From: Candidatus Nealsonbacteria bacterium
GTDB taxonomy: Bacteria > Patescibacteriota > Minisyncoccia > Minisyncoccales > CAZKCU01
Assembly (NCBI GenBank): GCA_047456305.1
Contig: CP179888.1
Span: 573,307-637,306, forward strand
DNA length: 64,000 bases
Reading direction: 5' to 3'
Shown: positions 15,627 to 43,489 of the stretch, piece by piece
How the letters are laid out: every line of letters begins with the position of its first letter
Numbering within the stretch: the stretch's first letter is position 1
Position numbers and translations under genes: made by a program
Notes under the pieces: generated by a model
Database searches by the model: none
Seen by the model: only the letters and a program-made list of their open reading frames with translations
Told to the model about the DNA's origin: nothing

Positions 15627-15628
15627 AG

Positions 15629-21629: not shown

Positions 21630-21633
21630 TTAT

Positions 21634-21906: not shown

Positions 21907-21916
21907 AAAGAATAAT

Positions 21917-22096: not shown

Positions 22097-22100
22097 GATC

Positions 22101-25676: not shown

Positions 25677-25700
25677 AAAATTAAATGAAAAATTAATTAT

Positions 25701-27903: not shown

Positions 27904-27918
27904 AAGAATTACAATTTG

Positions 27919-29322: not shown

Positions 29323-29457
29323 TTTTTATTTGACTGGTGATTATCGGCAGTGCTTTTTTGCGATGGTAGGGTAGAGGAGAAGAAAAAGAAATAAATTTAT
29401 GAAGGCAAAAATATAATAATCATTTTGGCGTTGATAGTTATTATTTTATAATTACTT

Positions 29458-30225
29458 ATGAAAATATATTCTGATTTTGAACTTAGAACAGAAATAAAAA
29501 AACTCAAAAAAGAAAAAAAATACACAGAGGCTAAGAAGTTACTATTATCAAGAATAGATGAGAAATTTTTTAAAAAATCCGGTGCTTATAAGGATTATTG
29601 TTCGCAAACATTTACTACTTACTTTATCGAAGAACTTATAAAATTGTTAATTCAACTAGGCGAAAAAGAAAAGGCTCTCCATGTCTTTAAGAAAGGGCTA
29701 AAATTACCACATTTAAAAAGAGAAAATGAAATTGCCTTTTCTCTATCAATACAAAGTATCTATCCTCAAATAGCAAAACAGTATATTCCAAGATATAAAA
29801 TAAAAACAATCGAAAGAAGGGTAGTTTTCAAGAAAGGCAAACAAAAATTTTTAGAAAAAAATAGAAAGGAATTATTTGTTGAAGAGATAGCTTTGGAATA
29901 TTACCGTTATAATGGTAATTGGCGCGGTGTATGGCTCACTCCCACAACAGAAGTTTTATATTTTAAACGCTTAAGACAAACAATTGGTTTAAGTAATTAC
30001 AAAAAATTAACAAGCAATGCAATGGATAGCATGGGGCATATTTGCAATTTGTGCTATGGAGCACCAGATTTAATTTTGTATAAAGGGTTTATCAAGAAGA
30101 TTGGGAAGTCTGTTGAAGTAAAAGGCTTAAAAGACAAACTCTCTACAGCACAGTTAGTATGGATTGAACAATTTAATAAACTACATTTAGATTTTGAGGT
30201 GTTACAAGTTAAAGAAAAAAAATAA
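29458..30225 (+). CDS. FAN1-like nuclease (helical/TPR-like N-domain + VRR-NUC)
   Basis: VEEIALEYYRYNGNWRGVW and GAPDLILYK...SVEVKGLKDKLSTAQLVWIEQF (PD...ExK VRR-NUC pattern). Confidence 0.6.
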   Translation: MKIYSDFELRTEIKKLKKEKKYTEAKKLLLSRIDEKFFKKSGAYKDYCSQTFTTYFIEELIKLLIQLGEKEKALHVFKKGLKLPHLKRENEIAFSLSIQSIYPQIAKQYIPRYKIKTIERRVVFKKGKQKFLEKNRKELFVEEIALEYYRYNGNWRGVWLTPTTEVLYFKRLRQTIGLSNYKKLTSNAMDSMGHICNLCYGAPDLILYKGFIKKIGKSVEVKGLKDKLSTAQLVWIEQFNKLHLDFEVLQVKEKK

Positions 30226-30436
30226 TATTTTTGTGAGAGGTTAACTCTAACTCGAAAAAATTAAAGAAATTAGAATTTGGAGAGTGAATAAAATTTTTAA
30301 ATAAAAATGTGAATTTTTTAGTAGAAAATCTTTTAAAAGTTAGGGCAACTGACCATCGAAAAATTCAAGAGGAAATTAGAAGAATTATTAAAAGAAGCCA
30401 AACAAAAAGTCGAGGAATTAATTGAGAAATAAAATT

Positions 30437-30730
30437 ATGGATTATATAAAAACGTATATATTTAAAGATAAAGATGGTAAATTTTGGCCAAAAGTAAAAT
30501 TTAATACTGAGAAAGGAGATTGGCAACCTAAGGCGGAACAAATTAAAGATATTGTTAGGGTATATTCTTATTGTCTAGAAAAATCTCGTTATTCTGAAGC
30601 TTTTGGTGGTGCAGAAAAATTTGCAGAACAAATCAACCTCGCCATTTTATACAATAAAGATGGTTCCCCTAGGTCGTATGAATACGGAGATGAAATATAT
30701 GATATAGAAGAGGAAGTAAAAGAACATTGA
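30437..30730 (+). CDS. Hypothetical protein
   Basis: ORF track; ATG 30437 preferred. No recognisable motifs. Confidence 0.4.
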   Translation: MDYIKTYIFKDKDGKFWPKVKFNTEKGDWQPKAEQIKDIVRVYSYCLEKSRYSEAFGGAEKFAEQINLAILYNKDGSPRSYEYGDEIYDIEEEVKEH

Positions 30731-30751
30731 GAGAAAAATAAAAGATCAATC

Positions 30752-30770
30752 AAAATTTAGCCCGAAATTA
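30752..30770 (+). repeat. Junction repeat family 1 (AAAATTTAGGCYGAARTTGAG), short copy
   Basis: AAAATTTAGCCCGAAATTA immediately before ATG 30773. Confidence 0.6.
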
Positions 30771-30772
30771 AT

Positions 30773-31477
30773 ATGAAACAATGGGATAAAATATTTAAAA
30801 AATATGGTAAAGTTTTTACAAAAATCGAAAGGGATTTGCCAAAAATTGTAAAAATATTTAAAAAACATAATGTTAAAAAAGTCCTTGATTTAGGTTCAGG
30901 CACGGGACGACATGTAATTTATTTAGCTAAAAATGGATTTGAAGTATATGGAATTGATATTTCCGAGGAAGGAATAAAAATTACCAAAAATTGGTTAAGA
31001 GAGAACGAATTAAAGGCGGGCCTTAAAGTTGGCTCCATCTACAAAAAGTTGCAATACAAAGATAACTTTTTTGATGCGGTTATATCTACAAGCACGATTC
31101 ATCATGCCAGAATTAAAACCATCAGAAAAGCAATCAAAGAAATAGAAAGGATATTAAAGCCAGGCGGATTAATTTTTATAACTGTCCGTAAAAGAAAGCT
31201 TAAGAAGTTCTGGCCAAAATCTACAATAATTGAGAAATACGGAAAACAAAAATCAAGCTATAAAGTAATTGGACCAAGGACTTATATACCGATAGAAGGA
31301 GGCGAAAAAGGATTAATACATTATCTTTTTAATAAAGAATTGATAAAAAAAGAATTTAAGAACTTTAAAATTAATAATATTTGGATTGATTCTAAAAGAA
31401 GGCATTATTGTTTCTTAGGGGAATTAAAAAACTTACCAAAATTTAGGCCGAAGTTGAGGGAAATCAATAAAATATGA
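30773..31477 (+). CDS. Class I SAM-dependent methyltransferase
   Basis: [11 protein letters not shown] motif I, GIDIS acidic loop, [10 protein letters not shown]. Confidence 0.75.
31438..31465 (+). repeat. Junction repeat family 1, copy inside 3' end of methyltransferase ORF
   Basis: AAAATTTAGGCCGAAGTTGAGGGAAATC, 9 nt before ATG 31474. Confidence 0.7.
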
Positions 31478-32016
31478 AATATCCTGATTTGAAGATAAAA
31501 TTTCAAAATAAAACATTAACTTTTCAATTTTTGGGGCAATTTGAGATCGAGCGAGACGAAAAAGGAACCCCAATTACTTATGAGAGGAAAAATCAAGAAG
31601 AAACGAGTTATTTATTAAGTGTTCGGACAGAACTAACAAAAAGTGGTAAACCTGAGGTAATTACAATTCTTCCAAATCATTTACGTACAAAATTAAAACG
31701 AAAATATTACGATACAAAAAATCTTGGTGATATCTGGCGATTACCCGGAATTTATGCATTTATATTGACAAAAGATAATAACGTAAAATACAAATATATA
31801 GGTCGAGCAAGTATCAGAATTGCAAACCGTTTACGACAATACCTTGCACCGAGCTCTAAAAGAATGACGACTTTTTATGTAAATCGATTGTTGTTTAAAA
31901 CACTTAAAGAGGGAGACACAGTGCTAATCTATTTTTATCCCGAGCCTGACACAGAAAAGGAATTGCAAATTCTTCTTCGTCCAGATTGGAACCGTGAGAT
32001 TCCTAGAAATAATTAA
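31474..32016 (+). CDS. GIY-YIG-like nuclease-domain protein (tentative)
   Basis: [22 protein letters not shown]...ANRLRQY resembles GIY-(x13)-YIG plus a conserved Arg. ATGA overlap with the upstream gene. Confidence 0.4.
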
Positions 32017-32042
32017 AATTTAGGCCAAAGTTGAGAGAAATT
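32015..32042 (+). repeat. Junction repeat family 1, intergenic copy
   Basis: AAAATTTAGGCCAAAGTTGAGAGAAATT, 10 nt before ATG 32053. Confidence 0.7.
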
Positions 32043-32052
32043 CAAAAAGAAT

Positions 32053-32628
32053 ATGAATGATATTGAAATCGAGATTCAAGTTAATATTGAAGATAATAAG
32101 CCGCTAATAGATTTTTTAGAAAAGAGCGGTCAGTTTATGTCAGAGAACCATCAGATAGACGAGTATTTTTCTCCGGTTCACCGAAATTTTATTGGAGTTC
32201 GTCCAGTTAAAGAATGGTTAAGGTTACGAAACTCAGACGGGAAATTCTCTATAAATTATAAAAACTGGTATTTTGATGAAAAAGGAAAAAGCCACCATTG
32301 TGATGAATACGAAACTAAAATAGAAGATTTAACCCAAATTAAAAAGATATTAGATGTCCTTAATTTTAAATCTATTATTAAGGTTGATAAACTAAGAAAA
32401 ACCTGGATATACAAAGATTATGAAATTGATGTAGATTCAGTAAAAGGGCTGAGAGATTTTGTGGAGATTGAATACATCGGAAAAGAAGAAAAAATAGACC
32501 CAAAAAAGATTACAGAAGAAATGATGAGCTTTCTTAAAAGTCTTGGGTGCGGAAAAATAAAAAGGAATTATGTAGGTTATCCGTTTCAATTACTATTTCC
32601 AGATGAAGTAAAATATGAAGAGCAATAA
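32053..32628 (+). CDS. CYTH-domain protein (CyaB-like class IV adenylyl cyclase / triphosphatase fold)
   Basis: N-terminal IEIEIQ (ExExK-like), WLRLR, DEYETKI, LRKTW, DFVEIEY in CyaB-like order. Confidence 0.7.
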   Translation: MNDIEIEIQVNIEDNKPLIDFLEKSGQFMSENHQIDEYFSPVHRNFIGVRPVKEWLRLRNSDGKFSINYKNWYFDEKGKSHHCDEYETKIEDLTQIKKILDVLNFKSIIKVDKLRKTWIYKDYEIDVDSVKGLRDFVEIEYIGKEEKIDPKKITEEMMSFLKSLGCGKIKRNYVGYPFQLLFPDEVKYEEQ

Positions 32629-32629
32629 A

Positions 32630-32658
32630 TCGCCAAGATGGCGGTTTTTTGATAGAAT
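32630..32658 (+). promoter_or_regulatory. Junction element family 2: hairpin + T-run + TGnTAGAAT (-10) cassette
   Basis: TCGCCAAGATGGCGGTTTTTTGATAGAAT; ATG 32666 lies 7 nt after the -10. Confidence 0.6.
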
Positions 32659-32665
32659 AAATAAA

Positions 32666-32956
32666 ATGAAATATAGTAAAAAACCAATTGATAATAATTT
32701 AGAGAAATATTACAAAAAATGGATTTCAGCAATTGCTAATGACGAAACCGGCCGAACAATCAAACGGCATATCATTAGACATGCCAAAGAAATTTATTCA
32801 AAAGAATCAAAAGTATGGTCGGCGAGCATGAGAAATTTGATAGAAGTTTTTGATGAGGTCTATAAATCGACTCCGTCAATAAAATTAAAAATAAAAAGAC
32901 TCCAACATAAGTACAAACTGAATCCAAAAAGATATACCCCTCCACCGTCCAAGTAA
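32666..32956 (+). CDS. Hypothetical basic protein
   Basis: ORF-track frame trimmed to the ATG that follows the junction element (MKYSKKPID...). Confidence 0.4.
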   Translation: MKYSKKPIDNNLEKYYKKWISAIANDETGRTIKRHIIRHAKEIYSKESKVWSASMRNLIEVFDEVYKSTPSIKLKIKRLQHKYKLNPKRYTPPPSK

Positions 32957-32973
32957 GGTTTAAATTTTCGTAA

Positions 32974-33002
32974 TCGCCAAGATAGCGGTTTTTTGGTAGA
33001 AT
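32974..33002 (+). promoter_or_regulatory. Junction element family 2
   Basis: TCGCCAAGATAGCGGTTTTTTGGTAGAAT; ATG 33010 lies 7 nt after the -10. Confidence 0.6.
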
Positions 33003-33009
33003 AGAAAAT

Positions 33010-33552
33010 ATGAAGAAAGAGGAATATTTAGATATAGTTGACGAAAATGACAAGGTAATTGATAGAGATACTAGAAAAAATATATATAGAAAAAGAATAG
33101 ATTCCCAAGTTAGAGTTGTAAATGTTTTTATTTTAAACTCGGAAGGAAAATTACTCCTACCTAAAAGGTCGATGAATAGACAGATTTTTCCTGGATGCTA
33201 TGATTTTTCTTGTGGAGAACATGTTTTATCTGGAGAAAAGTATTATGAAACAGCCTTGAGAGGCGTGAGAGAAGAATTGGGCCTTGAAGGAGTAGAATTA
33301 ATTGAGTTAGGGAAACTTACTCCTCGGGATGGTGTTAGTTGTTTTATGAAAATCTATAAAGTGATCTATGATGCAGAAATAAATAATTATGACACGGATG
33401 GAATTGATAGATTGTTTTGGTATAGCTTGGATAAAGTGAGAAAAATGATCATGGAGGACAAGAAAAAATTTAAGGATGATTTTTCAATTGTACTAGAAAA
33501 ATTTGCTAATCAACTTGAAAACATAAGTAGCAAAAAACAGAATTTAGGCTGA
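33010..33552 (+). CDS. Nudix hydrolase (IDI/YfcD-like)
   Basis: Nudix box GEHVLSGEKYYETALRGVREELGL, with RG in place of the canonical RE. Confidence 0.8.
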   Translation: MKKEEYLDIVDENDKVIDRDTRKNIYRKRIDSQVRVVNVFILNSEGKLLLPKRSMNRQIFPGCYDFSCGEHVLSGEKYYETALRGVREELGLEGVELIELGKLTPRDGVSCFMKIYKVIYDAEINNYDTDGIDRLFWYSLDKVRKMIMEDKKKFKDDFSIVLEKFANQLENISSKKQNLG

Positions 33553-33559
33553 AATTGAG
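33541..33559 (+). repeat. Junction repeat family 1, copy at 3' end of Nudix ORF
   Basis: AATTTAGGCTGAAATTGAG. Confidence 0.6.
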
Positions 33560-33582
33560 CCCTTCGCCAAGCTCAGGGTAAA
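33560..33582. repeat. 23-nt GC-rich motif CCCTTCGCCAAGCTCAGGGTAAA
   Basis: One mismatch to 54426-54448 inside murC. Confidence 0.7.
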
Positions 33583-33609
33583 GGAAAATTTAATAACTAT
33601 ATAAAGATT

Positions 33610-34173
33610 ATGGCATTAAAAGTAGGTATAATTGGACCCGCTAATATTCCGAAAATAAGTAAAATTGTTGGGAAACCAGCAGGTTTTTTTCTTGAGAGGG
33701 GTGATAAGATTGGAGAAATTTTAGTCGAAACTGGTTGTGAATTGTGGGTAAATAGTGATAAAGGTATGCTGGCTAAAATTGCCAGAGCTTATAAGAAAAA
33801 TAATGGTAAAAAATTAGTTATTCTATACCCTGGTAAAGGCGAGCCATGGCCTAAAGATCATGCCGAATTATACAGAAAATACGGAGATGAAATTAGAAAA
33901 GAACCTAACTGGTTTTGGTCAAATTATAATGTAGTTTCATTACCAGATGTTTGTATTTGTGTAGGATTAAGCGCTGGTGGTTTGAGTGAGTTGGCATATA
34001 TTAAATGGAATTATTCATTGAAATGTGGGAATTTAAAAAAATTAATTGCAATAAAAGAATTGTTAAGAGGTGGTAAGTTGCCACCAGAAATTGAATTTGA
34101 TATCCAAAAAATATTAATATACATCAATAAAACTGAGGAATTAAAGGAACTTTTAGAAAAACTTTCTAAATAA
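33610..34173 (+). CDS. LOG/SLOG-like Rossmann-fold protein (TIGR00725-like, tentative)
   Basis: VGIIGPAN N-terminal strand, GCELWVNSDKGMLAKIARAY, CVGLSAGGLSELAY resembling the LOG GGxGTxxE region. Confidence 0.45.
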   Translation: MALKVGIIGPANIPKISKIVGKPAGFFLERGDKIGEILVETGCELWVNSDKGMLAKIARAYKKNNGKKLVILYPGKGEPWPKDHAELYRKYGDEIRKEPNWFWSNYNVVSLPDVCICVGLSAGGLSELAYIKWNYSLKCGNLKKLIAIKELLRGGKLPPEIEFDIQKILIYINKTEELKELLEKLSK

Positions 34174-34231
34174 ATCTTTTTAGTTAAAAAAAGCCTATTG
34201 CTGGGCAATTTTTATTTATACTCTCTCGGCC

Positions 34232-34261
34232 TTGACTTTTTTATTTATAAATGCTAAAAAT
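34232..34261 (+). promoter_or_regulatory. Sigma70-type promoter of SD-led small-gene operon
   Basis: TTGACT, 17 nt, TGCTAAAAAT. Confidence 0.5.
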
Positions 34262-34323
34262 AAAATGTCCTAAAATATAACTTTAGGATATTGTTCATTA
34301 TCATTCAGGAAAGGAGGGGAAGA

Positions 34324-34506
34324 GTGAAAGTAACCAATATAAAATTAAAGCGACCCGGTGAATATCTAATCGTAGAGGTAAGGTGTCCTGACTGCAACCA
34401 CCTCAACATAGTAAGGATAAAACACCAAGGCCAAAAGAGGGGAGCAGATGCAGAGGTGGAGTGTAAAGCTTGTGGAGCAACTATAAGATACGACTGGGAG
34501 AGGTAG
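34324..34506 (+). CDS. Small zinc-ribbon protein
   Basis: GTG start after AAAGGAGGGG. CPDC...CKAC pairs. Confidence 0.45.
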   Translation: MKVTNIKLKRPGEYLIVEVRCPDCNHLNIVRIKHQGQKRGADAEVECKACGATIRYDWER

Positions 34507-34522
34507 AACAAAGGAGGGCGTT

Positions 34523-34864
34523 ATGCTTAATAGAACAGAATTGGAAGTACCAAAAGAAGTGAGGACGAAGGTAAGGGCTTTAAGAAAAGGATTTAATAAG
34601 CTGATGACTGAACAACGAAAGATGGATCAGGTTGCGAGAGATAGGTATTTTCCTCAGGAAGAGTCTTGCAAAATAGCAAGAGCGACCAGAGAAAAGGCTA
34701 AATCCCTTTTAAAAAAGTCAGGAATTGATTCTGAGACATTCCGTAAGGCTTTGCTTCTATATGAGTCCATTGAGCAGGAGAAAACAGGTAAGGACTATAC
34801 TTCCAGCACCTGGGTACTATTTTGGGCAGGTGGTCTTGAACTCTTTGGTTATTCAGGCGAGTAA
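34523..34864 (+). CDS. Hypothetical protein
   Basis: ORF with SD AAAGGAGGG 6 nt upstream. Confidence 0.45.
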   Translation: MLNRTELEVPKEVRTKVRALRKGFNKLMTEQRKMDQVARDRYFPQEESCKIARATREKAKSLLKKSGIDSETFRKALLLYESIEQEKTGKDYTSSTWVLFWAGGLELFGYSGE

Positions 34865-34881
34865 AAAAAAGGAGTTAGAAA

Positions 34882-35100
34882 ATGATTGAGGAAATAGAGA
34901 GTGCAATAAAAGAAGGGAAGATAGTTGCTCTGGAAGAAGACAGAAGAACTGGCGAATTAAGTATACACACATTTGACGATGATCGTTCATTGCTGTTAGC
35001 TTATTTTGCTGGCGCTGATACATCAGAAAAATTTGAGTATACACCAAGAGTCCTGTTCATTAAGGAGATTTATGAGCCAGAGCCTATTCATCAAATATGA
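34882..35100 (+). CDS. Hypothetical acidic protein
   Basis: ORF with SD AAGGAG upstream. Confidence 0.45.
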   Translation: MIEEIESAIKEGKIVALEEDRRTGELSIHTFDDDRSLLLAYFAGADTSEKFEYTPRVLFIKEIYEPEPIHQI

Positions 35101-35120
35101 CGATAATTGGTCGTCATATT

Positions 35121-35163
35121 AAAGAGGTACGTCCTGTTCAGGAAACGGCCTCTTTCTATTTTG
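35121..35163 (+). terminator. Terminator of small-gene operon
   Basis: AAAGAGG...(inner CCTG-tt-CAGG)...CCTCTTT followed by CTATTTTG. Confidence 0.45.
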
Positions 35164-35297
35164 TAAAACTCACAAAATCGATAGCTCAAAATACTTTTTA
35201 GACAACTGCCAGTAGGTTCTAATAGTGTTCAATCCTTGCAGTTAATGAATTTCAAAAAAAGTTGCCGAGAAGAAATTTTTTTGGTAAGATAGAATAT

Positions 35298-36011
35298 ATG
35301 AAATTAGTCAATAAAACAGCTTTAATAACTGGTGGCTCAAAAGGAATTGGAAGGGCTATTGCTCAAATGTTTATTAAAGAAGGAGCAAAAGTTATAGTTT
35401 TTGACATTGAAAAACCAGATTACGAAGTGGAATTTTATCAAGTTGATACAGGCAAAGAAGAACAAATAGGAAAGGCGTTTGGTCAGATTAAACAATTAGA
35501 TATCCTTGTAAATAATGCTGGAGTATATTTTCAGGCATCTGTAGAAGAAACCTCAAAAGAGCAATTGGATAAAATTGTGGATATAAATTTAAAAGGAACA
35601 TATCTAATGTCAAAATACGCAATTCCCATAATCAGGAAAACCAAGGGCAATATTATCAATATTTCATCAGGATTAGGGGTTGTTCCTGAGCCAGAATCTC
35701 CTGCCTATTGTTCAACAAAAGCAGCGATAATAATGCTTACAAAATGTATGGCTCAAGAATACGCGTCAGAGGGATTAAGGATAAATGCGATATTACCAGG
35801 ACCAATAGATACTCCATTATTAAGAAATGCTTTTTCTTCAGAAAAGGAAATTGAAGAATATGCAAAATTAAATCCTATGAAGAGGATTGGGAGACCGGAA
35901 GATGTTGCAAGTATAGCAGTTTTTTTAGCTTCAGATGAAGCAAGCTACGTCACTGGTGGACTATATTCAGTCGATGGTGGAGAGTCTACTTCCAGTGTTT
36001 ATTCAAAATAA
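35298..36011 (+). CDS. Short-chain dehydrogenase/reductase (FabG-like)
   Basis: TGGSKGIGRAIA, NNAG, YCSTKAA. ATG 35298 follows a TGGTAAGAT box. Confidence 0.85.
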   Translation: MKLVNKTALITGGSKGIGRAIAQMFIKEGAKVIVFDIEKPDYEVEFYQVDTGKEEQIGKAFGQIKQLDILVNNAGVYFQASVEETSKEQLDKIVDINLKGTYLMSKYAIPIIRKTKGNIINISSGLGVVPEPESPAYCSTKAAIIMLTKCMAQEYASEGLRINAILPGPIDTPLLRNAFSSEKEIEEYAKLNPMKRIGRPEDVASIAVFLASDEASYVTGGLYSVDGGESTSSVYSK

Positions 36012-36027
36012 GTCGCCGTAAGGAAAA

Positions 36028-36056
36028 TCGCCAATCAGGCGTTTTTTTGGTAGAAT
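36028..36056 (+). promoter_or_regulatory. Junction element family 2
   Basis: TCGCCAATCAGGCGTTTTTTTGGTAGAAT; ATG 36063 lies 6 nt after the -10. Confidence 0.6.
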
Positions 36057-36062
36057 AGGAAT

Positions 36063-36704
36063 ATGAATAATAATTTTAACTCAGAAAATTTAGGTAAAAT
36101 TTTTGATTTTTTACATAAAGTAGGAAAGTTAAAATTAACTTTCAGATTTAGTGAGGTAAAAAACATGCCTAAAGATTTAAAAGACTCAAGTGCTGCGCAT
36201 TCGTGGAGATTGGTCTTAATGGTATTTATAATAGCTGATGAATTAAATTTGGATATAAATATAGAGCACGCCTTAGAGATTGCTATTATTCACGATATTG
36301 TAGAAGCAATTACAGGAGATATAGACCAAGTTTTAATTTTTGATGGTAAGGTATCAAAAGAAGAAAAACAAAGAAATGAAAAAGAAGCGATGAAAAAACT
36401 TAAAGAAAGCCTACCTTTAAAACTCGGAAATAAAGTATCTAATTTATGGAATGAATATGAGGGAAGCTCTACAAAAGAAGCGAAATTTGTAAAAGCGCTT
36501 GATAAATTAGAAACATTAACTCATTTAATTGAAACTGGTTATAAAACCTATGATAGACCAGAATTTATAGTCAAATATGCCGATAAAACAGTTAAAAATT
36601 TCCCCGAATTAACGGGTGTGTTAAAAATAATCAAAAAGAAGCTAAAAGCAGAATTTGATAAGGGCAATATTCCATGGAAAGAAGAATATGATTGTTTAGA
36701 TTAA
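36063..36704 (+). CDS. HD-domain phosphohydrolase (YfbR-like 5'-nucleotidase type)
   Basis: AAHSWRL...AIIHDIVEAITGDI (H...HD...D). Confidence 0.75.
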   Translation: MNNNFNSENLGKIFDFLHKVGKLKLTFRFSEVKNMPKDLKDSSAAHSWRLVLMVFIIADELNLDINIEHALEIAIIHDIVEAITGDIDQVLIFDGKVSKEEKQRNEKEAMKKLKESLPLKLGNKVSNLWNEYEGSSTKEAKFVKALDKLETLTHLIETGYKTYDRPEFIVKYADKTVKNFPELTGVLKIIKKKLKAEFDKGNIPWKEEYDCLD

Positions 36705-36718
36705 TAAACTGCCAAAAA

Positions 36719-36747
36719 TCGCCAAAAAGGCGGTTTTTTGATAGAAT
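36719..36747 (+). promoter_or_regulatory. Junction element family 2
   Basis: TCGCCAAAAAGGCGGTTTTTTGATAGAAT; ATG 36754 lies 6 nt after the -10. Confidence 0.6.
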
Positions 36748-36753
36748 AGAATA

Positions 36754-38931
36754 ATGAATCTAAAAGACCAACGAACTAATTGGAAATATATTTTAATTGT
36801 AGTTATTTTAACTTTTCTTGGAATAACAGTTTTAGCTCAAGAAGCCGAACTTCCATCACCAGGACTTACCCCCGATAGTCCATTTTATTTCTTAGATACT
36901 TTAGCAGAGAAAATAGGGATGTTCTTTACTTTGGGTGCTGAGAAGAAAGCCGAGAAAGCTGTACGATATGCCGAAGAGAAATTAGCTGAGCTTAAGGCAA
37001 TGGCGGAGAAGAATAAAATTCAAGCCCTAGAGAGAGCTAACCAGAAATATCAAGAATTTCTGAGATTGGCTAATATGAAAACCCAGGAAGCCAAAGAGAA
37101 AGGAAAAGACGTAGAAGAGTTAGCAGTTTTAATTACTGAAAAAACTCTAAAACATCAAGAAGTATTAATAGAAATATTTGAGAAGGTTCCAGAAGAAGCT
37201 AAAGAGGGAATCCAAAAAGCAATTGAAGTTTCAAGAAGTGGTTCAGAAGAAGCTGTCCAGGCAGTAACTGGAGTAAAGAAAGAAGAATTACTACAAAAAA
37301 TAGAAGAAGTAAAAATAAAGGCAGAGGAAAGGATAAAGCTCGAACAATTACTTGCAGAAACTGCTGATTGGAATATATACAATAACCATATTTTTGGATA
37401 TAAAATTAAATATCCAGACGATATATTTGCTATAATTCCGACCTCATTTTCAGATAATAAAAACACCCTCTTTGAAATCGTTCCTCAAGCAGCCGTGACT
37501 ATCCAGATTGGTCAAAATCCGGAAAGATTATCTGTAATAGATTGGATTGAACAAACCCCCGATGATATTTCATTTTTTATCAGAAAATATAAGGATACCA
37601 TAGAAACGATAAACATTAATGAGAAAGAGTGTGCCCGGGTCATTTCTGTTACTCAATCACAAGGACGCCCAATGGAGCAATGGGTACACACTGTAATACC
37701 GTTTGAAACAAGAATGGTTGTTATTTCAAAAGTTGAGGAAGATAAAAGCTATAACCTTGAACAAGTTTACCAGAAGATGTTGCCTACCTTTGAATTTGTA
37801 GAATTAGAAGAAGCTGAGGAAGCTCCAAAGGTTGAAGAGAAGCCATATATTAAGGTAATTTCTCCCAATGGAGGCGAAGAATGGAAAGTAGGGAGTACTT
37901 ACAATATCACTTGGGCATCAGAAGACGTAGAAAAAGTTAATATTTTTCTTCTGGGATGCAAAACAAAAGAGTGCCCTGTGGAGTCAGGAATTTCTTCGTA
38001 TAAAATTTATCCTCATTCGCTAGACGCTGAAGCAGGAAAACATTCTTGGACTATTTATTCAAAAGACATTGGATTTGGATTCGGGTTTGGTATTTCTGAA
38101 TATGTCTGCTTTAAAATAAAAATCGAAGAAGCTTCCTCGGAGTCAGTAGGAATTTTAGACAATTTTCTTTCAATGTTAGCTTATATTGCTAATAAGCTGG
38201 GAATTCAAACTTCTGATTTAGTTAAAGATGTAAGCGACGAGTGTTTTAGAATTATTGAAGTAGCATTACCCGAGGAAGAGAAGGAAAAAGAAGAAGCTTG
38301 TCCTTTGCCTGAGACTCCTGTTTTAACAGGTCCGGGAATTTCTGTTAATAATAATGAACCTTATACCTTGAATTGGACAAGTGTTGAGGGTGCAACGGGG
38401 TATTGGTATCAAAGTGGATATGGTGCTCCAGTTTTCGACGCGCCTGCTGTGTATACTAACTTAAATAGTATTACACACACTCAACACCTCGGGACTTCTG
38501 TTACTTTTTATTATCGAGTAAAAGCCTGTAATGATTGTGGATGTAGTGTTTGGAGTAATATAGTAGATATCCAAGTTATTGTTGCTCCATTCATTAGGAT
38601 TACTTCTCCTAACGGAGGTGAGAGGTGGGTAGTGGGTCAGACTTACAATATCGAGTGGCAATCTTACAGGCTTGAAAAAGTTACCATTGACTTATTTGCT
38701 TATAACGCCGAGGGTCAGGTAATAAAAGGATTCCAGTATTTTATTGCTGAGTCTATTGATGCAACAAGGGGTTATTACAATTGGACTATTCCAGAAATTG
38801 CAGATTACCCTAATTATAAATTAAGGATATACAATAAGTTATGCATAGGAGGAGATGCAGATTTATTAGCAGAATGTTTGAAAGATCGATATTTCGATGA
38901 AAGCGATGGTTATTTTAGTATTGTAGAATAA
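36754..38931 (+). CDS. Large secreted/surface protein (DUF5667-like N-domain, repeated beta-domains)
   Basis: Signal/TM, PGLTPDSPFYFLDTLAEKI, ETADWNIYNN..GYKIKYP, two ISPNGGE.W.VG.TYNI.W modules, FN3-like segment. Confidence 0.7.
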   Translation: MNLKDQRTNWKYILIVVILTFLGITVLAQEAELPSPGLTPDSPFYFLDTLAEKIGMFFTLGAEKKAEKAVRYAEEKLAELKAMAEKNKIQALERANQKYQEFLRLANMKTQEAKEKGKDVEELAVLITEKTLKHQEVLIEIFEKVPEEAKEGIQKAIEVSRSGSEEAVQAVTGVKKEELLQKIEEVKIKAEERIKLEQLLAETADWNIYNNHIFGYKIKYPDDIFAIIPTSFSDNKNTLFEIVPQAAVTIQIGQNPERLSVIDWIEQTPDDISFFIRKYKDTIETININEKECARVISVTQSQGRPMEQWVHTVIPFETRMVVISKVEEDKSYNLEQVYQKMLPTFEFVELEEAEEAPKVEEKPYIKVISPNGGEEWKVGSTYNITWASEDVEKVNIFLLGCKTKECPVESGISSYKIYPHSLDAEAGKHSWTIYSKDIGFGFGFGISEYVCFKIKIEEASSESVGILDNFLSMLAYIANKLGIQTSDLVKDVSDECFRIIEVALPEEEKEKEEACPLPETPVLTGPGISVNNNEPYTLNWTSVEGATGYWYQSGYGAPVFDAPAVYTNLNSITHTQHLGTSVTFYYRVKACNDCGCSVWSNIVDIQVIVAPFIRITSPNGGERWVVGQTYNIEWQSYRLEKVTIDLFAYNAEGQVIKGFQYFIAESIDATRGYYNWTIPEIADYPNYKLRIYNKLCIGGDADLLAECLKDRYFDESDGYFSIVE

Positions 38932-38945
38932 AAGGGATTAAAAAA

Positions 38946-40532
38946 ATGATTATATCCAAAAAACCCCGAACAATCCTACGGATTTTACGGGGCAAGCAAT
39001 TAGGCTTTGCTTTACCTCTGGTTATTTTAATAGTGGTAATTTTAATCGCTGCTGGGGGAGGGGGGTATTATTTTTACAAAACTTTGCAGGAACAGAAAGA
39101 AGCTGAAATAGTTGAGCCCGAGCAAGTAATTGATGAAACTGCGGATTGGCAGATTTATAAGAATGAAAAATATGGGTTTATTTTGAAGTTCCCTGAATCT
39201 TGGACAGATTTTGAGGTACATGAATGGAGGGTGGACCAAGATCCGGGGAGGATGCCGCCATATTTTGATACGATAGAATTTAAGATAGATCGAATCCAAG
39301 ACAACGGCAAAGAATATTATTTTTCGGTCCGGATTTATCCTTATTCTCATGATAACTGGGCAGTAAGACGATTAGGTCAACAAACGAAAAAATATTTTTT
39401 CATCAGCGCCTCACACCTCCTTTATCCTTATCTTGGAGAAAATAAGGATTATGTTTTTTCTTGGGATACGAGTAGAGGCATTCTTTCTCCGGAAGTGCTC
39501 GGAGAAGATTTAACCGAAGATGTTCTTCAATTAAGAACCCAGGAAGCAGAAAGTATTATTTCTACTTTTAAAATAATTAATCCTCTTGAAAAAACTGCTG
39601 AATGGGAAAATTATTTTAATCCCGAGAGATGCAAAGATATCGAAGAAAATGATTACACTAATGAATGCTATTTAGAATCTCTTAGAGATCTCAGAGAAGT
39701 GGAAATGTGCAAGAAAGCGAGGCCGGATTACCAAGATTTTTGTTATTTTCAAGTTGCCCAAAATTTGAAAAATTCTTTTATTTGTGAAAATCTTTCGACT
39801 TTGATTAATCAAGAATCGTGTTACTTAAATATTGCTATATCTTTAAAAAAAGCTTCAATATGCCAGAGTATCCAAACCGAAGAGCGAAGAAATATTTGCT
39901 ATATGGATGTTGCCGAGCTCTTAAAAGACCCTTCAATATGTGAAGAAATTGAGAACCAAAAAGCAAAAGGATATTGTCTTAGGGGTAGCAGCCCAGAACA
40001 GCCAGAACTGCCAATCCCTCCAATTTCTGAATGGAAAACCTATACCAATGAAAAACATAAATATTCTTTCAAGCATCCGCCGAAATGGAATTTTCAAGTG
40101 GAGTTGACTAACCCGGAAATTAGTGAACTTTATGTAATCAGAGAAAAAATTAGCAATGAAACTAGAACAGCTGAATGGCTCTGGTTTGTCACAATAGATG
40201 TCTGGGATAACCCTTCAGAATTATCTCTTATTGATTGGCTTAAATTTCGAAGAGAGCCCGGCGTACTTATTCCCAAAGATATGCCTTTTGTGGCTAATAC
40301 TTCTGTCGGAGAAGAAAAAATAGAAGCACTTCGGCTATGGAAGGATGGTACCAGCACCTGGGACAAACCCGGTAAATGTTTCCAAGCCTGTCCATCCTTA
40401 GCCGTTTATTTTGTTTATAAAGGCAAGGCCTATCTAGCTGGATTGGAATATCGAGGAGAAGTTGATGATGTTGACCAAGGAAGCCAGGAAGTTTTTGAAC
40501 AAATCCTTTCTACTTTTCGCTTTTTAGAGTAA
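38946..40532 (+). CDS. Membrane-anchored secreted protein
   Basis: N-terminal TM; two copies of the (ETAD)W.IY.NEK.G/K..K.P module; Cys-rich helical-repeat middle region. Confidence 0.65.
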   Translation: MIISKKPRTILRILRGKQLGFALPLVILIVVILIAAGGGGYYFYKTLQEQKEAEIVEPEQVIDETADWQIYKNEKYGFILKFPESWTDFEVHEWRVDQDPGRMPPYFDTIEFKIDRIQDNGKEYYFSVRIYPYSHDNWAVRRLGQQTKKYFFISASHLLYPYLGENKDYVFSWDTSRGILSPEVLGEDLTEDVLQLRTQEAESIISTFKIINPLEKTAEWENYFNPERCKDIEENDYTNECYLESLRDLREVEMCKKARPDYQDFCYFQVAQNLKNSFICENLSTLINQESCYLNIAISLKKASICQSIQTEERRNICYMDVAELLKDPSICEEIENQKAKGYCLRGSSPEQPELPIPPISEWKTYTNEKHKYSFKHPPKWNFQVELTNPEISELYVIREKISNETRTAEWLWFVTIDVWDNPSELSLIDWLKFRREPGVLIPKDMPFVANTSVGEEKIEALRLWKDGTSTWDKPGKCFQACPSLAVYFVYKGKAYLAGLEYRGEVDDVDQGSQEVFEQILSTFRFLE

Positions 40533-40606
40533 AGTATCCTGCCAGACAGGTTCTAACATCCCTCCTTCGCCGAAGCTACGGAGGGCGCAGCCGAAGTTTA
40601 AGAATT

Positions 40607-41890
40607 ATGGAAGAAGAAAACCAACAAAAAGATGAGAAAATTTTTTCAATTTCGGATTATATTAAAATTGTAAATCAGGGATTAAAAGCTTTTAGATCAA
40701 AAATCATAGGAGAAGTCAGCGAGGTTAGTTTTGGGCCCACTGGTCATGTCTATTTTACTCTGAAAGATGAAAAAGATGAGAGTATAATAAAGTGTGTAAT
40801 CTGGAAATCCAGATACGATATTTATGGCATTGAGTTAAAAGAAGGGATTAAAATTATTGCCACTGGATATCCTGAAATATACGCGCCGTGGGGAAAGCTA
40901 TCTTTTAAATCTGAAGTTATTGAACATGCCGGAGAGGGAACCTTGAAAAAAGAGTATGAAAAATTAAAAGAGAAATTAACCAAAGAGGGGCTTTTTGAGG
41001 AAGTTAGAAAACGACCAATCCCAAAATATCCGCAGAAAGTCGGAATAATTACCTCAAAACAGGGCGCGGTTCTCGCCGATTTTTTAAATAACCTGGGAAG
41101 GTTTGGACTCAAAATTAAAATGATTGATTCTCGCGTAGAGGGACAGGCCGCTATTGCCGATTTATTGCTTTCGATTAAAACGCTGAAGAAAGAAAATATA
41201 GAAGTGCTGGTAATTATGCGTGGGGGAGGTTCTTTGGAATCAATGTTGGCTTTTAATAATGAATCGCTGGTTAGAGAAATAACCAATTTTTCGGTTCCGG
41301 TAATTGCGGCAATCGGTCATCATAAAGATGTTCCTCTTGTAGCGTTAGCAGCCGATCGTTCGGTTTCAACGCCAAGCATTGCTGCAACCGTTCTTAGCGA
41401 ATCTTGGGAGCAAGCCACCTCATTATTAGAAGAATACGAAAGAGACACTATTAGTTCTTATGAGAATCTATTAGAAAATGCCAATTTATTAATAAACCAG
41501 TCAGTAGATACAATTTGCGGGATAAAGGACTTAATTTTTGATAAATATAAAGAAGTTGAAACTGCGCTAAAAATTTCTTTCCAGGCATTCAAGAATACTC
41601 TCCAAAACAGTAAAAATAACCTAAAGAATTCGTGGAAGAAATCCATATTTGGCTTTAATTCATTATTATCAATAATCAAGCAACAATTAGAGCATTCAGA
41701 AAAAATCGTTTATCTTCGCAATCCGGAAACCCAACTTAAGCTTGGTTATAGTATCGCACGATGCGGTGGCAGATTGATTAGAAGTATAAGAGATACTAAA
41801 ATAGGAGAAGATGTGGATATTCGGGTGGTAGATGGAACAATTATTTCTAAAGTAAAAAACATAAATAAAATTAACAAAAAACATGCCTAA
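40607..41890 (+). CDS. xseA: Exodeoxyribonuclease VII large subunit
   Basis: N-terminal OB region, VGIITSKQGAVLADF, IMRGGGSLES, long helical C-terminus. Confidence 0.85.
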   Translation: MEEENQQKDEKIFSISDYIKIVNQGLKAFRSKIIGEVSEVSFGPTGHVYFTLKDEKDESIIKCVIWKSRYDIYGIELKEGIKIIATGYPEIYAPWGKLSFKSEVIEHAGEGTLKKEYEKLKEKLTKEGLFEEVRKRPIPKYPQKVGIITSKQGAVLADFLNNLGRFGLKIKMIDSRVEGQAAIADLLLSIKTLKKENIEVLVIMRGGGSLESMLAFNNESLVREITNFSVPVIAAIGHHKDVPLVALAADRSVSTPSIAATVLSESWEQATSLLEEYERDTISSYENLLENANLLINQSVDTICGIKDLIFDKYKEVETALKISFQAFKNTLQNSKNNLKNSWKKSIFGFNSLLSIIKQQLEHSEKIVYLRNPETQLKLGYSIARCGGRLIRSIRDTKIGEDVDIRVVDGTIISKVKNINKINKKHA

Positions 41891-42161
41891 AGAAAAACCA
41901 GATGTTAAAAATTTAAGCGACAATCTTAAGAAGCTTTCTGAAATTACCGAATGGTTTGAGAGTCAAAAAGAGGTTGATATTGAGGAGGGTTTGAAAAAAG
42001 TAAAAGAGGCGGTAGCTCTTATTAAGGCTAGCAAAGAACGACTCAAGGCGGTGGAAAATGAGTTTGAAGAAATTAAGAAAGAGGTAGATATTGAGGGGGA
42101 TAACGATGACGAAGAAGGGCCAGAAGGGGACGAAGAAGATGCCAAAGATATACCACTTTGA
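41883..42161 (+). CDS. xseB: Exodeoxyribonuclease VII small subunit with acidic tail
   Basis: 8-nt overlap with xseA. LKKLSEITEWFESQ..DIEEGLKKVKEAVALIK helical-hairpin pattern. Confidence 0.7.
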   Translation: MPKEKPDVKNLSDNLKKLSEITEWFESQKEVDIEEGLKKVKEAVALIKASKERLKAVENEFEEIKKEVDIEGDNDDEEGPEGDEEDAKDIPL

Positions 42162-42191
42162 GACACCCCTTAAGGTCCCCAAATTTGTTCC

Positions 42192-42237
42192 TAAAATCCA
42201 GGTTCGAGACCAGGGATGCCAGCACCAGTCAGCGCAG
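42192..42237 (+). repeat. Direct repeat with tRNA T-arm-like core (left copy)
   Basis: TAAAATCCAGGTTCGAGACCAGGGATGCCAGCACC...AGCGCAG, about 85-90% identical to 42796-42841. Confidence 0.75.
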
Positions 42238-42387
42238 TATCGAGGCCGACCGAGACGTCCTCTTTTGACCAGGGAGCGTTTTTCGATAGAATAAAAACAT
42301 GAACGACAATAAACTAGTTCGGTTTTCACCATCGGATTTATTGGAGCATAACGATGCGCTTGAGATTCTAATAATGTTTTGAAAAAT

Positions 42388-42711
42388 ATGAGCCTTATAC
42401 CAAAAACTATTTTAGGTAAGTGGTCTATTGTATTAATTGTTGCGATACCGGTATTTTTTTATATCGGTATGTCATTTGTAGGTTTTTATGAATCTGTTCC
42501 AGCTGGAAAAACAATACCACATGATATTGTTGTGAGGCCTAGAGTAGCGTTACCGATGTTAGCCGGATTTATTTCCGGAATTGCGGCTTTTTTCGTCGGC
42601 ATCATTAGTATTACAAGGAAAAAAGATCATTCTGTTTTTGTATTTTTATCTACGGCGATTGGGTTTTTGGTGCTGCTTTGGTGTTTGGCTGAAATTTTAT
42701 TTCCGCATTAA
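42388..42711 (+). CDS. Small membrane protein (4 TM)
   Basis: ORF track; hydrophobic segments. ATG 42388 preferred. Confidence 0.5.
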   Translation: MSLIPKTILGKWSIVLIVAIPVFFYIGMSFVGFYESVPAGKTIPHDIVVRPRVALPMLAGFISGIAAFFVGIISITRKKDHSVFVFLSTAIGFLVLLWCLAEILFPH

Positions 42712-42795
42712 TTAAAATTTTATCTCATTTTAGCTTAAAAATGCCCCGACCGAGGCGGGTCGATGGAATACTGCCAAAAGCCCCGAAATCCCTCT

Positions 42796-42841
42796 TAAAA
42801 TCCAGGTTCGAGACCGGGGATGCCAGCAACCCTGAGCGCAG
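42796..42841 (+). repeat. Direct repeat with tRNA T-arm-like core (right copy)
   Basis: TAAAATCCAGGTTCGAGACCGGGGATGCCAGCAACC...AGCGCAG. Confidence 0.75.
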
Positions 42842-42887
42842 CTCCAAGTAAACAGGTTCTAACAGCGTCCAGTTAGCGGAGCAAGGC

Positions 42888-42936
42888 TTGACAAAGATGT
42901 ATGGCATGCTAATGTGATGTAATACAAATTATTACA
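42888..42936 (+). promoter_or_regulatory. Promoter plus palindromic operator of the TA module
   Basis: TTGACA, 16 nt, TGCTAATGT; then TGTAATA-caaat-TATTACA (42918-42936) 5 nt before the ATG. Confidence 0.5.
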
Positions 42937-42941
42937 ATTTT

Positions 42942-43157
42942 ATGCGTGAAATAATTAATATTTCATTACCAAAAGAGTTAAATAAGAAAGTCGAAGAGTT
43001 AATGAAAAAGGGTAGATATGCCACCAAGAGCGAATTTTTTCGTGATTTAATTAGAATGTGTATAGAAGGAAGAATTGTCCGAGAATTAGCTGAGAGTCGA
43101 AAAGAATTATCCTCTAGTAAAGGAAAACTTCTAAAATCATTAAAGGATTTAAAATAA
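42942..43157 (+). CDS. Ribbon-helix-helix (CopG/RelB-like) antitoxin
   Basis: MREIINISLPKELNKKVEELMKKGRYATKSEFFRDLIR, a typical RHH N-terminus. Confidence 0.7.
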   Translation: MREIINISLPKELNKKVEELMKKGRYATKSEFFRDLIRMCIEGRIVRELAESRKELSSSKGKLLKSLKDLK

Positions 43158-43167
43158 ATCCTTGTGT

Positions 43168-43434
43168 ATGAAGATTTACTATTCGAGTAAGTTTGCTCGA
43201 GAGTATCGAAAATTACCTTTAAAAGTGAAGAAGTGTGCCGAGAGGAAAGAACAAATCTTCCGGAAAAATCCTTTCGATCCAAAACTTAAAACTCATAAAT
43301 TAAAAGGGAGTCTTAAAGGATTTCTTTCTTTCTCTATAAGTCAAAAATATCGAATTATTTTTGAATTTGTTAATTCTCACACAGTTTGGTTCCACTCTGT
43401 CGGGGAACATTCCATTTATAAATTGTGGGACTGA
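43168..43434 (+). CDS. RelE/ParE-superfamily type II toxin
   Basis: FAREYRKL, KTHKLKGSLKGFLSFSIS.KYRIIFEF...HSVGEHSIY pattern; 10 nt after the antitoxin. Confidence 0.7.
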   Translation: MKIYYSSKFAREYRKLPLKVKKCAERKEQIFRKNPFDPKLKTHKLKGSLKGFLSFSISQKYRIIFEFVNSHTVWFHSVGEHSIYKLWD

Positions 43435-43460
43435 GAATTGCTGAATTGCTGTTACCGGAA

Positions 43461-43489
43461 TCGCCAAGATGGCGGTTTTTTGATAGAAT
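43461..43489 (+). promoter_or_regulatory. Junction element family 2
   Basis: TCGCCAAGATGGCGGTTTTTTGATAGAAT, identical to the 32630 copy. ATG 43496 lies 6 nt after the -10. Confidence 0.6.

Follow-up and report, generated by a model that had tools for sequence, protein, structure and literature searches.

Introduction

Which signals mark the boundary between one gene and the next in a compact genome is the question raised by a 64,000-nucleotide (nt) stretch of a Candidatus Nealsonbacteria bacterium (contig CP179888.1, positions 573,307 to 637,306; hereafter the window), in which a motif of the form (A-rich)TCGCC-N5-GGCG-R-T6-G-R-TAGAAT occurs five times on the + strand, at 32630, 32974, 36028, 36719 and 43461. 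An initial annotation of this DNA had proposed that each copy joins a terminator hairpin to an extended -10 box placed directly before a start codon and that the whole travels as one portable unit. In this report, we follow the motif through public genomes and metagenomes, and we consider it reasonably probable, on sequence evidence, that the element is a compact dual-coded terminator-promoter junction used across a large clade of Patescibacteria. Its anatomy, its spread across lineages, its fixed geometry, its pairing pattern and the breakpoints that fall inside it are direct observations.

Five copies at gene junctions in the window

The 29-mer TCGCCAAGATGGCGGTTTTTTGATAGAAT is exact at 32630 and 43461 and has two mismatches each at 32974 and 36719 (search with up to 3 mismatches), and dinucleotide-preserving shuffles of the window predict zero matches. 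The copy at 36028, TCGCCAATCAGGCGTTTTTTTGGTAGAAT, differs from the 29-mer at four positions, including the loop AATCA and a G to T change ahead of the T-run, and was recovered with the pattern TTTTTTGNTAGAAT, which gives 6 matches where 1.28 are expected. Thus, all five copies listed in the initial annotation are present. They lie on the + strand within gaps of 37-61 nt that separate co-oriented genes, and they start 1-26 nt past the stop codon of the upstream gene; their flanks are unrelated to one another. The copies and their neighbours are as follows (aa, amino acids; ORF, open reading frame).

32630 to 32658, + strand: copy 1; hairpin TCGCCA-AGA-TGGCGG at 32630-32644, T6 at 32645-32650, TGA at 32650-32652, TAGAAT at 32653-32658
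Neighbours of copy 1, + strand: upstream CYTH gene at 32053-32628, its stop 1 nt before the element; downstream ATG at 32666 of a 96-aa hypothetical protein
32974 to 33002, + strand: copy 2; weakened stem with TAGCGG; ATG at 33010 of a Nudix protein (180 aa)
36028 to 36056, + strand: copy 3; loop AATCA, T7; after the SDR gene at 35298-36011; ATG at 36063 of an HD_3 phosphohydrolase (213 aa)
36719 to 36747, + strand: copy 4; loop AAAAA; ATG at 36754 of a DUF5667 protein (725 aa)
43461 to 43489, + strand: copy 5; identical to copy 1; ATG at 43496 of a 46-aa lysine/arginine-rich ORF

The genes that follow are as unrelated as had been claimed, comprising a 96-aa hypothetical protein, Nudix, HD_3, the 725-aa DUF5667 protein and a 46-aa basic peptide. 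The assignment of a hairpin, a T-run and an extended -10 box to the window copies is supported by their sequence. A GC-rich stem-loop followed by T6-7 is the layout of an intrinsic terminator, and the predicted RNA hairpin energies of copies 1 to 5, with pairing of the A-tract and T-run included, are -12.8 (z -3.8), -5.7, -9.0, -11.5 and -11.0 kcal/mol, that is, -9 to -12.8 kcal/mol in four of the five. The 5-bp CGCCA/TGGCG stem described for every copy exists at 32630 and 43461 only; at 36028 and 36719 the stem is a 4-bp CGCC/GGCG core joined by a U-A or U.G pair and by pairing of the upstream A-tract with the T-run, and at 32974 it is weakened. TAGAAT, a -10 box of the TAnnnT type, stands in all five copies and is preceded in all five by TGA or TGG, as in extended -10 (TGn) promoters. 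The distance from TAGAAT to the ATG is 7, 7, 6, 6 and 6 nt for copies 1 to 5, and this gap is A-rich and without a Shine-Dalgarno (SD) sequence, in a window with a G+C content of about 34% and few SD-like sequences.

A lineage-wide family

A scan of one genome per species with the pattern CGCC-N5-GGCG-N-T6-G-N-TAGAAT (21 specified bases) gave at least 131 copies in at least 116 loci, and nearly all of the genome matches listed are titled Patescibacteria, Parcubacteria, Paceibacteria, Nealsonbacteria, Staskawiczbacteria, Portnoybacteria or Minisyncoccales. A second scan, of metagenomes, with a pattern that specifies the 3' arm only (GGCG-N-T6-G-N-TAGAAT), gave at least 142 copies in at least 120 loci. 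Together, the two scans place more than 270 copies in more than 230 loci outside the window, and the same core is common to many candidate phyla-level groups. The genes downstream in these relatives are diverse, with 132 distinct proteins falling into 99 BLAST clusters. A phage origin was rejected, as 2.9 million viral contigs (IMG/VR) hold a single match, and a known RNA family was rejected as well, because Rfam, run at the gathering threshold over the window and 18 related loci, called nothing but tRNAs. Judged by this distribution, the element is a chromosomal, lineage-wide family in Patescibacteria (Parcubacteria/Paceibacteria).

Some element-bearing contigs are filed under unrelated taxa, among them L013 (Gammaproteobacteria), L041 (a Methanosarcinales archaeon) and many named 'Candidatus Saccharibacteria'. 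These are probably mis-binned or loosely labelled Parcubacteria, and the motif could therefore serve as a clade marker.

Promoter-like features and distance to the start codon

Sites in the fetched DNA that the search patterns did not pick offer an unselected view of the family. Their mismatches to TCGCC/GGCG are bimodal, with 40, 22 and 14 sites that have 0, 1 and 2 mismatches, respectively, and a mode of 7-8 for the background. The -10 box of these copies varies within TAnnnT (TAGAAT, TAAAAT, TAGGAT, TATAAT, TAAGAT) while T6 and TG are fixed, a pattern expected of working promoters rather than of simple copies; in the 76-copy alignment, the selection expression itself required the G of TG and the T and A of the -10 box, so that invariance at those positions is by construction. 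Among 137 copies, the base preceding CGCC, which lies outside the search pattern, is always T, GGCG is followed by G (74), A (58), T (4) or C (1), and the first loop position is A in 102.

A promoter scan found TCGCCA, a 17-bp spacer and TAGAAT with the upstream TG at all five window copies. TCGCCA agrees with TTGACA at four of six positions (T1, G3, C5 and A6) at exactly this spacing, and the -35-like role that this suggests for the 5' arm is a feature beyond those in the initial annotation.

When the distance from the -10 box was measured to the first ATG opening an ORF of at least 40 codons, it peaked at 6 nt, with 31, 12, 12 and 6 of the 137 copies at 6, 7, 8 and 9 nt. Recorded gene calls begin at the predicted ATGs in two related contigs (L237 at 10001 and 14706; L241 at 5552 and 6216). 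The rule of an ATG 6-7 nt past the -10 box without an SD sequence, which had been given for the element as a whole, thus holds for all five window copies, and in the family the leaderless geometry (6-9 nt) applies to 61 of 137 copies, or about 45%, the remaining half or so having leaders of 10-80 nt or no nearby ORF. Because so many copies have longer leaders, the promoter would be general and leaderless initiation confined to a large subset. At the window copies the geometry is that of leaderless genes, and their mRNAs would be leaderless. Across the window, 19 of 71 gene starts (about 27%) have TAnnnT 4-9 nt upstream, compared with 15% of random ATGs; 12 of the 71 have an SD-like sequence, and 40 have neither.

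A recurrent motif of the longer leaders, AAGGTC, stands next to the predicted start, 6-10 nt past the -10 box, in L013, L051, L052, L061, L065, L067, L085, L092, L105, L108, L111, L113 and L116, and possibly at window 54812-54822. It is followed by an AT-rich leader of 30-45 nt and then by the ATG of a protein that is often small and hydrophobic-looking; Rfam gave no match to this class. AAGGTC may be a conserved 5'-leader signal.

Pairing and placement of the hairpin

Sampling through the 3' arm leaves the 5' arm free to vary, and TCGCC was found at a 5-nt loop in 87 of 141 copies. In 45 of the other 54 the 3' arm is still paired in the minimum-energy fold, with the 5' arm displaced by 10-nt loops (for example, CCGCC-TTATCAAATA-GGCGG) or by inserted inner stems (for example, ATCGCC-TCCGTCAG-CTGACGGAAG-GGCGG), and an exact CGCC lies 10-44 nt upstream in 26 of the 54, compared with a background of 10.8%. 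Since the spacing of the arms varies and their pairing is kept, a hairpin is favoured over a dimeric DNA operator. Opposite the invariant T stands G (38) or A (37), with no case of C, and G accounts for 62% of the non-A bases in the two positions that precede the stem on its 5' side, where 32% is expected (p = 6.6e-5); such a G would form G.U pairs with the U-tract. In addition, three compensatory C-G to U-A changes occur, in L059, L135 and L241. Pairing therefore seems to matter at the level of the sense-strand RNA.

The placement of the hairpin points the same way. Every GC hairpin of this kind in the window follows a co-oriented gene; 5 of about 12 tandem promoters have it and 0 of about 8 at divergent junctions (Fisher p = 0.05), a comparison that covers the window alone, the sample of all loci being dominated by pattern-selected copies. 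Of 155 cases in the relatives that could be scored, 147 have an upstream neighbour in the same orientation. This distribution is as a terminator role predicts.

Three metagenome loci (L190, L223 and L143) contain canonical-looking hairpins with a structured insertion of about 25 nt in the 3' arm, for example TCGCCAAGAAGGC[CTCGCCCGTAGGGCTATGGCCGAG]GGCGG.

Two readings of the same bases

In the RNA of the upstream gene, the A-tract, UCGCC-loop-GGCGR and U6 would act together as an intrinsic (Rho-independent) terminator, and the hairpin possibly shields the 3' end of the transcript as well. Read as DNA by a sigma-70-type polymerase, the same bases would constitute the promoter of the next gene, with TCGCCA at -35, the 3' arm and T6 filling the fixed 17-bp spacer, TGn as the extended -10 and TAGAAT as the -10 box. 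Initiation would then fall about 7 nt past the -10 box, on or beside the A of the ATG, and give leaderless mRNAs in the window.

The displaced-arm copies bear directly on this model. We rejected the idea that the 5' arm is a mere fixed -35 box, as the arm moves and yet pairs. Nevertheless, in these same 54 copies similarity to TTGACA peaks at the 17-bp spacer, with a mean of 2.74 matches compared with 0.9-1.8 elsewhere, and T occupies position 1 of the hexamer in 41 of them (for example, TTATCA, CTGACA, CTGACG and TTGCCA). Because a -35-like hexamer stays at 17 bp when the arm has moved, both readings of the 5' arm are kept, and in the minimal, common form of the element the -35-like hexamer doubles as the predicted 5' arm of the hairpin. 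Several peculiarities of the sequence would follow from this double use. The invariant T and the frequent A at the first loop position are accounted for because the 5' arm is also the -35 box; the locked geometry of a 5-nt loop and T6 is accounted for because, after the 6-nt -35 hexamer, the parts of the spacer add up to 17 bp (4 + 5 + 6 + 2); and the CGCC stem is accounted for in part because TCGCCA keeps T1, G3, C5 and A6 of TTGACA.

Rearrangements break inside the element

An exact look-up of the window's HD protein gave no record, and close relatives of the window were reached through homologs of that protein. The contig CAYSLI010000002.1 (L237) matches window 12953-21647 at 85-94% identity and 35297-36506 at 92%, and at its SDR/HD junction the element stands at the same place as copy 3, differing only in the loop and at the R position. 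The 13.6 kb at window 21648-35296, which start from tRNA-Gln (21633-21708) and include copies 1 and 2, correspond to 0.8 kb in L237 (8420-9234), where only the first 15 nt or so of that tRNA are retained. This segment encodes HTH_17, a 1191-aa helicase-nuclease, PD-(D/E)XK nucleases, PIF1, VRR-NUC, a methyltransferase, GIY-YIG, CYTH and Nudix proteins and looks like an accessory island, with no integrase seen among its scanned proteins. The HD gene of L237 is cut at the point that matches window 36506 and has half an element attached (...GATAAA joined to GCGGTTTTTTGGTAGAAT; GCGG-T6-GG-TAGAAT), after which an acetyltransferase gene follows.

In L245, identity to the window (94.6%) extends over 36024-36743 only, from element through HD gene to element, and the outer flanks are unrelated; at the downstream end the 3' untranslated region and the hairpin resemble those of the window and the -10 box does not, so that similarity stops within copy 4. 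A third case is given by L241 and L244 compared with L242 and L243, which are 99.9-100% identical over 1.48 kb from the 3' arm/T-run onward and unrelated upstream; two assemblies, from different samples, contain each form. Between the two forms the hairpin changes by a compensatory pair (TCGTC...GACGA versus TCGCC...GGCGA), and differing hairpins on shared downstream DNA indicate a crossover between the hairpin and the -10 box. As had been predicted, structural differences among close relatives thus break at the element (L237, L245 and L241-L244).

A comparison of 200-nt flanks on each side of 280 copies is consistent with these cases. It gave 27 pairs alike on both sides (nearly all from the same strain), 8 alike upstream only and 20 alike downstream only; with duplicates and tRNA-like ends removed, about 13 independent one-sided cases stand against 1-3 diverged two-sided ones, and among the 28 one-sided pairs it is the high-identity protein-coding ones that carry the argument. 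The notion of a single travelling unit did not survive this analysis, because the junctions separate the hairpin, which goes with the gene before it, from the T-run/-10, which goes with the gene after it, and the moving unit is accordingly T-run/-10, ORF and hairpin. Joining the 3' hairpin of one gene to the T-run/-10 of another would rebuild a working terminator-promoter. Given the uniform layout, rearranged junctions would still work, which would explain the breakpoints inside the element.

A further step, which we regard as possible but doubtful, is that the junction is a universal adaptor as well as a recombination substrate, supporting an integron-like cassette economy without an integrase. 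All gene units would then begin alike, with T6-TGn-TAnnnT, and end alike, with the TCGCC...GGCGR hairpin; through crossovers in the shared 20-35 nt, either intragenomic or involving imported DNA, units would be exchanged, lost or gained, and every crossover would restore a working terminator-promoter, in a radiation of tiny genomes.

Two details of these relatives are recorded here. At L237 9159-9238, about 7 nt, in which there is no promoter, separate the end of a tRNA gene from the SDR start codon, which suggests that the 5' end of the SDR mRNA could come from tRNA processing. At L245 661-1300, gene calling splits the HD gene into ORFs of 57 aa and 170 aa, which suggests a frameshift, a pseudogene or a sequencing error.

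Weighing the explanations

Several points weigh against a dual-coded junction. Termination, promoter activity, leaderless translation and a role in recombination are all read from sequence, and the search patterns bias the greater part of the census, about 76 copies being free of that bias. The stem is short (4-6 GC-rich pairs), and that of copy 2 is weakened by a G to A change, to -5.7 kcal/mol. A formal covariation test was not significant (88% of cells paired, 3 compensatory, 58 of 500 shuffles equal), because the family varies too little, and a strand asymmetry of stem substitutions, with C to T tolerated and G to A not, was rejected, the counts in the core being 24 and 20. By eye, about 10-15 copies in relatives sit behind another hairpin with a T-run (for example, L042, L045, L072 and L206), where the TCGCC hairpin looks redundant as a terminator; such copies are poorly explained unless the module is kept whole since its 5' arm is also the -35 box. 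The second T of TTGACA is absent from TCGCCA, and a promoter with an extended -10 may work without any -35 box; the choice of a CGCC/GGCG stem is only partly accounted for. Finally, breakpoints inside the element are partly unavoidable because it fills nearly the whole gap between genes, and selection, which keeps only gene-sparing rearrangements, would in part make breaks fall in or beside it.

Some of these points suit an element that is a promoter only, in which the inverted repeat TCGCC-N5-GGCGA, from -35 to -21, would be bound by a conserved protein (a global repressor, an activator or an unusual sigma contact) and the likeness to a terminator would be incidental. The hairpin almost never occurs without a following TGnTAnnnT, CGCC is always preceded by T, most copies keep strictly to T6 and a 5-nt loop, the distance of about 11 bp between half-site centres would suit a dimer, and the copies behind a separate terminator-like hairpin and the symmetrical substitutions in the stem core fit as well. 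We nevertheless find this explanation unlikely, as a dimeric binder would not tolerate a 5' arm that is displaced in 54 of 141 copies and still pairs with the 3' arm, and instead of two half-sites at fixed spacing the family has loops of 5 nt, of 10 nt or with inserted stems. The G opposite the invariant T in half of the copies breaks a DNA palindrome and fits RNA G.U pairing, as does G replacing A in the 5' A-tract; moreover, the hairpin at recombinant junctions goes with the upstream gene and not with the gene of the promoter, the divergent-junction promoters of the window lack the 3' arm, and the downstream genes are very diverse. Equally, one may suppose an RNA 3'-end stabiliser or processing site, through which transcription reads and behind which the -10 box is a weak or internal promoter. 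The evidence for pairing in RNA serves this idea just as well, and short stems and tightly packed, strongly co-oriented genes agree with it; but an A-tract, a GC-rich stem and, directly after it, U6 are the defining layout of a terminator, and a fixed distance from -10 to ATG without an SD sequence makes little sense unless transcripts start there, so that we hold this idea to be quite improbable.

A dispersed repeat, selfish or mobilised by an enzyme (REP/REPIN-like, attC-like or like a miniature inverted-repeat transposable element, MITE), would make the likeness to promoters and terminators secondary or co-opted. It would explain the identical copies in one genome (32630 and 43461), the conserved-loop subfamilies TTATCAAATA, TATTTATTTG and CCTATACCCTTACRGGTCR that recur in unrelated contexts and in metagenomes, the nested insertions in some hairpins (L190, L223, L143), the breakpoints inside the element and the presence of the ATCGCC/GGCGAT core in a stand-alone hairpin at window 3869-3912. 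Copies within 100 nt of contig ends could be added (13 of 80 in metagenomes where 5.5 are expected), an enrichment that is weak and has no counterpart in genome contigs (0 of 23). Against such a repeat stand a core common to many candidate phyla-level groups, copies that are single and form no inverted doublets, a length of about 35 nt without terminal features, which fits MITEs or attC poorly, the absence of a transposase or integrase among about 30 scanned window proteins (21.9-45.3 kb), a geometry relative to the ATG and the upstream stop that is functional and not random, and a -10 box that varies inside the functional consensus. As the whole explanation it is improbable, and yet some copying and spreading remains plausible in view of the loop subfamilies, the hairpins with nested insertions and the identity of the copies at 32630 and 43461. 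That the copies arose by chance, or from one intergenic region duplicated locally, could be argued from five copies inside 11 kb and from a loop, AAGAT, common to three of them. Local duplication had been named beforehand as the finding that would overturn a modular element; its probability is now close to nil, and it was rejected by the zero copies expected from shuffles and by the more than 270 copies in more than 230 other loci of many genomes and metagenomes, the flanks of the window copies being unrelated besides.

Relation to known systems

The known parts of the dual-coded junction are the intrinsic terminator, the extended -10 promoter and leaderless starts. Leaderless genes of Actinobacteria and Deinococcus have a -10 hexamer a few nt before the start codon, and gene finders recognize a 'bacterial leaderless' class. 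Like these, the element has TAnnnT 6-8 nt before an ATG, no SD sequence and a predicted start at the A of the ATG; unlike them, its TGn extended -10 is joined, at constant spacing, to a conserved GC hairpin and T6, a single sequence of 29-35 nt is repeated throughout the clade, and only about 27% of window genes look leaderless. With intrinsic terminators of the 'bidirectional' type it shares an A-tract, a GC-rich stem, a short loop, an immediate U-tract and a position just past the stop codon. Ordinary intrinsic terminators are not known to have a conserved stem sequence, whereas the stem here is mostly TCGCC/GGCGR, the U-tract is fixed at 6 and a -10 box follows 2 nt later.

Among short palindromic repeats, some REP, BIME and REPIN sequences, Correia elements of Neisseria and pairs of DNA uptake sequences double as terminators, and REP families are not known to be conserved in sequence over so wide a clade as this element. 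REP/REPIN repeats occur as inverted doublets, are confined to a single species or genus and go with a linked RAYT transposase gene. The likeness lies in short palindromic intergenic repeats at gene 3' ends that can terminate or carry promoters, and the difference in the absence of doublets and in the rigid position relative to the next start codon; copies are single, the core is widely shared and no transposase was found among the roughly 30 proteins scanned at window 21.9-45.3 kb. REPINs are mentioned in PMC8049555. Like integron cassettes, the unit consists of a -10 box, an ORF and a 3' hairpin, with junctions in a hairpin-forming site, but it has neither the core sites nor the extrahelical bases nor the length of attC, and each unit has its own promoter. 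An attC site is an imperfect inverted repeat of 57-141 nt with conserved core sites and extrahelical bases, near an integron integrase gene; here the inverted repeat measures 15 nt, no GTTRRRY-type core was seen by eye, and no integron integrase was found among the roughly 30 window proteins scanned.

The nearest concept is that of putative mobile promoters, families of which are defined as 50-100 nt at no less than 80% identity (Matus-Garcia, Nijveen and van Passel 2012, PMC3488235). As in those families, a highly similar sequence stands ahead of unrelated genes within and between genomes; unlike them, the element is conserved over only about 29-37 nt, short of that length, and it includes a terminator, extends over many candidate phyla-level groups and comes apart at junctions instead of moving as one piece. 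Full-text literature searches found no description of promoters, terminators or a junction motif of Patescibacteria, the candidate phyla radiation (CPR) or Parcubacteria. What seems new is the rigid, sequence-specific fusion of known parts, common to a major uncultivated radiation and with breakpoints within it.

Related sites and other recurrent motifs

The following sites in the window are partial or related forms.

35262 to 35297, + strand: promoter-only relative; TTGCCG at 35262-35267, a 17-nt T-rich spacer, TAAGAT at 35285-35290, 7 nt, ATG at 35298 (SDR)
42265 to 42292, + strand: degenerate relative; TTGACC, 16 nt, TAGAAT; vestigial 3' arm GAGCG, T5; ATG at 42299 of a 27-codon ORF
9480 to 9521, + strand: like architecture with an unrelated hairpin, after tRNA-Glu; GAGAGACT...AGTCTC, T6, GGA, TATAAT, 6 nt, ATG at 9522
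3869 to 3912, + strand: stand-alone hairpin with a 16-bp stem and an ATCGCC/GGCGAT core, AAAACCTAAAATCGCC-TTTTATAA-GGCGATTTTAGGTTTT, after the gene at 2192-3838; no -10 box follows
17679 to 17720, - strand: divergent promoter, TTGCCAAGAG-TTTTT-...-TAATAT; 5' arm and T-run without a 3' arm

Two of these had been described as degenerate copies of the element. The one near 35279 retains the promoter part (TTGCCG, 17 nt, TAAGAT) and has no GC 3' arm, a separate hairpin lying 160 nt upstream, just past the upstream gene; the one near 42270-42292 has TTGACC, 16 nt and TAGAAT, with only a 27-codon ORF downstream. Other promoters in the window carry TTGACA, TTGCCA or TTGGCG hexamers. Directly upstream of copy 5, at 42942-43434, lies a pair of genes for an RHH antitoxin and a YafQ/RelE-like toxin.

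Two further motifs recur at gene junctions. One, AAAATTTAGGCCGAAGTTGAG, occurs at window 30745-30772, 31440-31473 and 32017-32052 and in L002, L040, L086, L144 and L242, immediately before start codons or immediately before the TCGCC hairpin, and may be the other junction family of the initial annotation. The second, GGCTWGTGCTCGGTTCGAGNGACCGAGNNGCAT, is about 33 nt long with a hairpin CTCGGT/ACCGAG and was seen at 29 places, between tRNA genes or sequence like tRNA 3' ends and the junction element (for example, L005, L012, L052, L064, L085, L088 with three copies, L133 with three copies and L245 597-630), with a degenerate form at window 42195-42262 or thereabouts; neither ARAGORN nor Rfam called a tRNA in it.

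Implications

Parcubacteria and their relatives make up a large and almost wholly uncultivated share of bacterial diversity. If the dual-coded junction is real, it would supply the Parcubacteria group with a concrete consensus for promoters and terminators, together with a rule for start codons, namely an ATG 6-9 nt past TGnTAnnnT, and leaderless initiation would be used in these bacteria beside SD-dependent and SD-independent initiation. It would also be an instance of one sequence serving two signals, the 5' arm with the -35 box and the U-tract with the spacer, under strong genome compaction, and the element is in any case a cheap sequence marker for metagenome contigs of the clade, mis-binned ones included. 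Moreover, it would offer a testable account of how gene order may change among close relatives without loss of expression.

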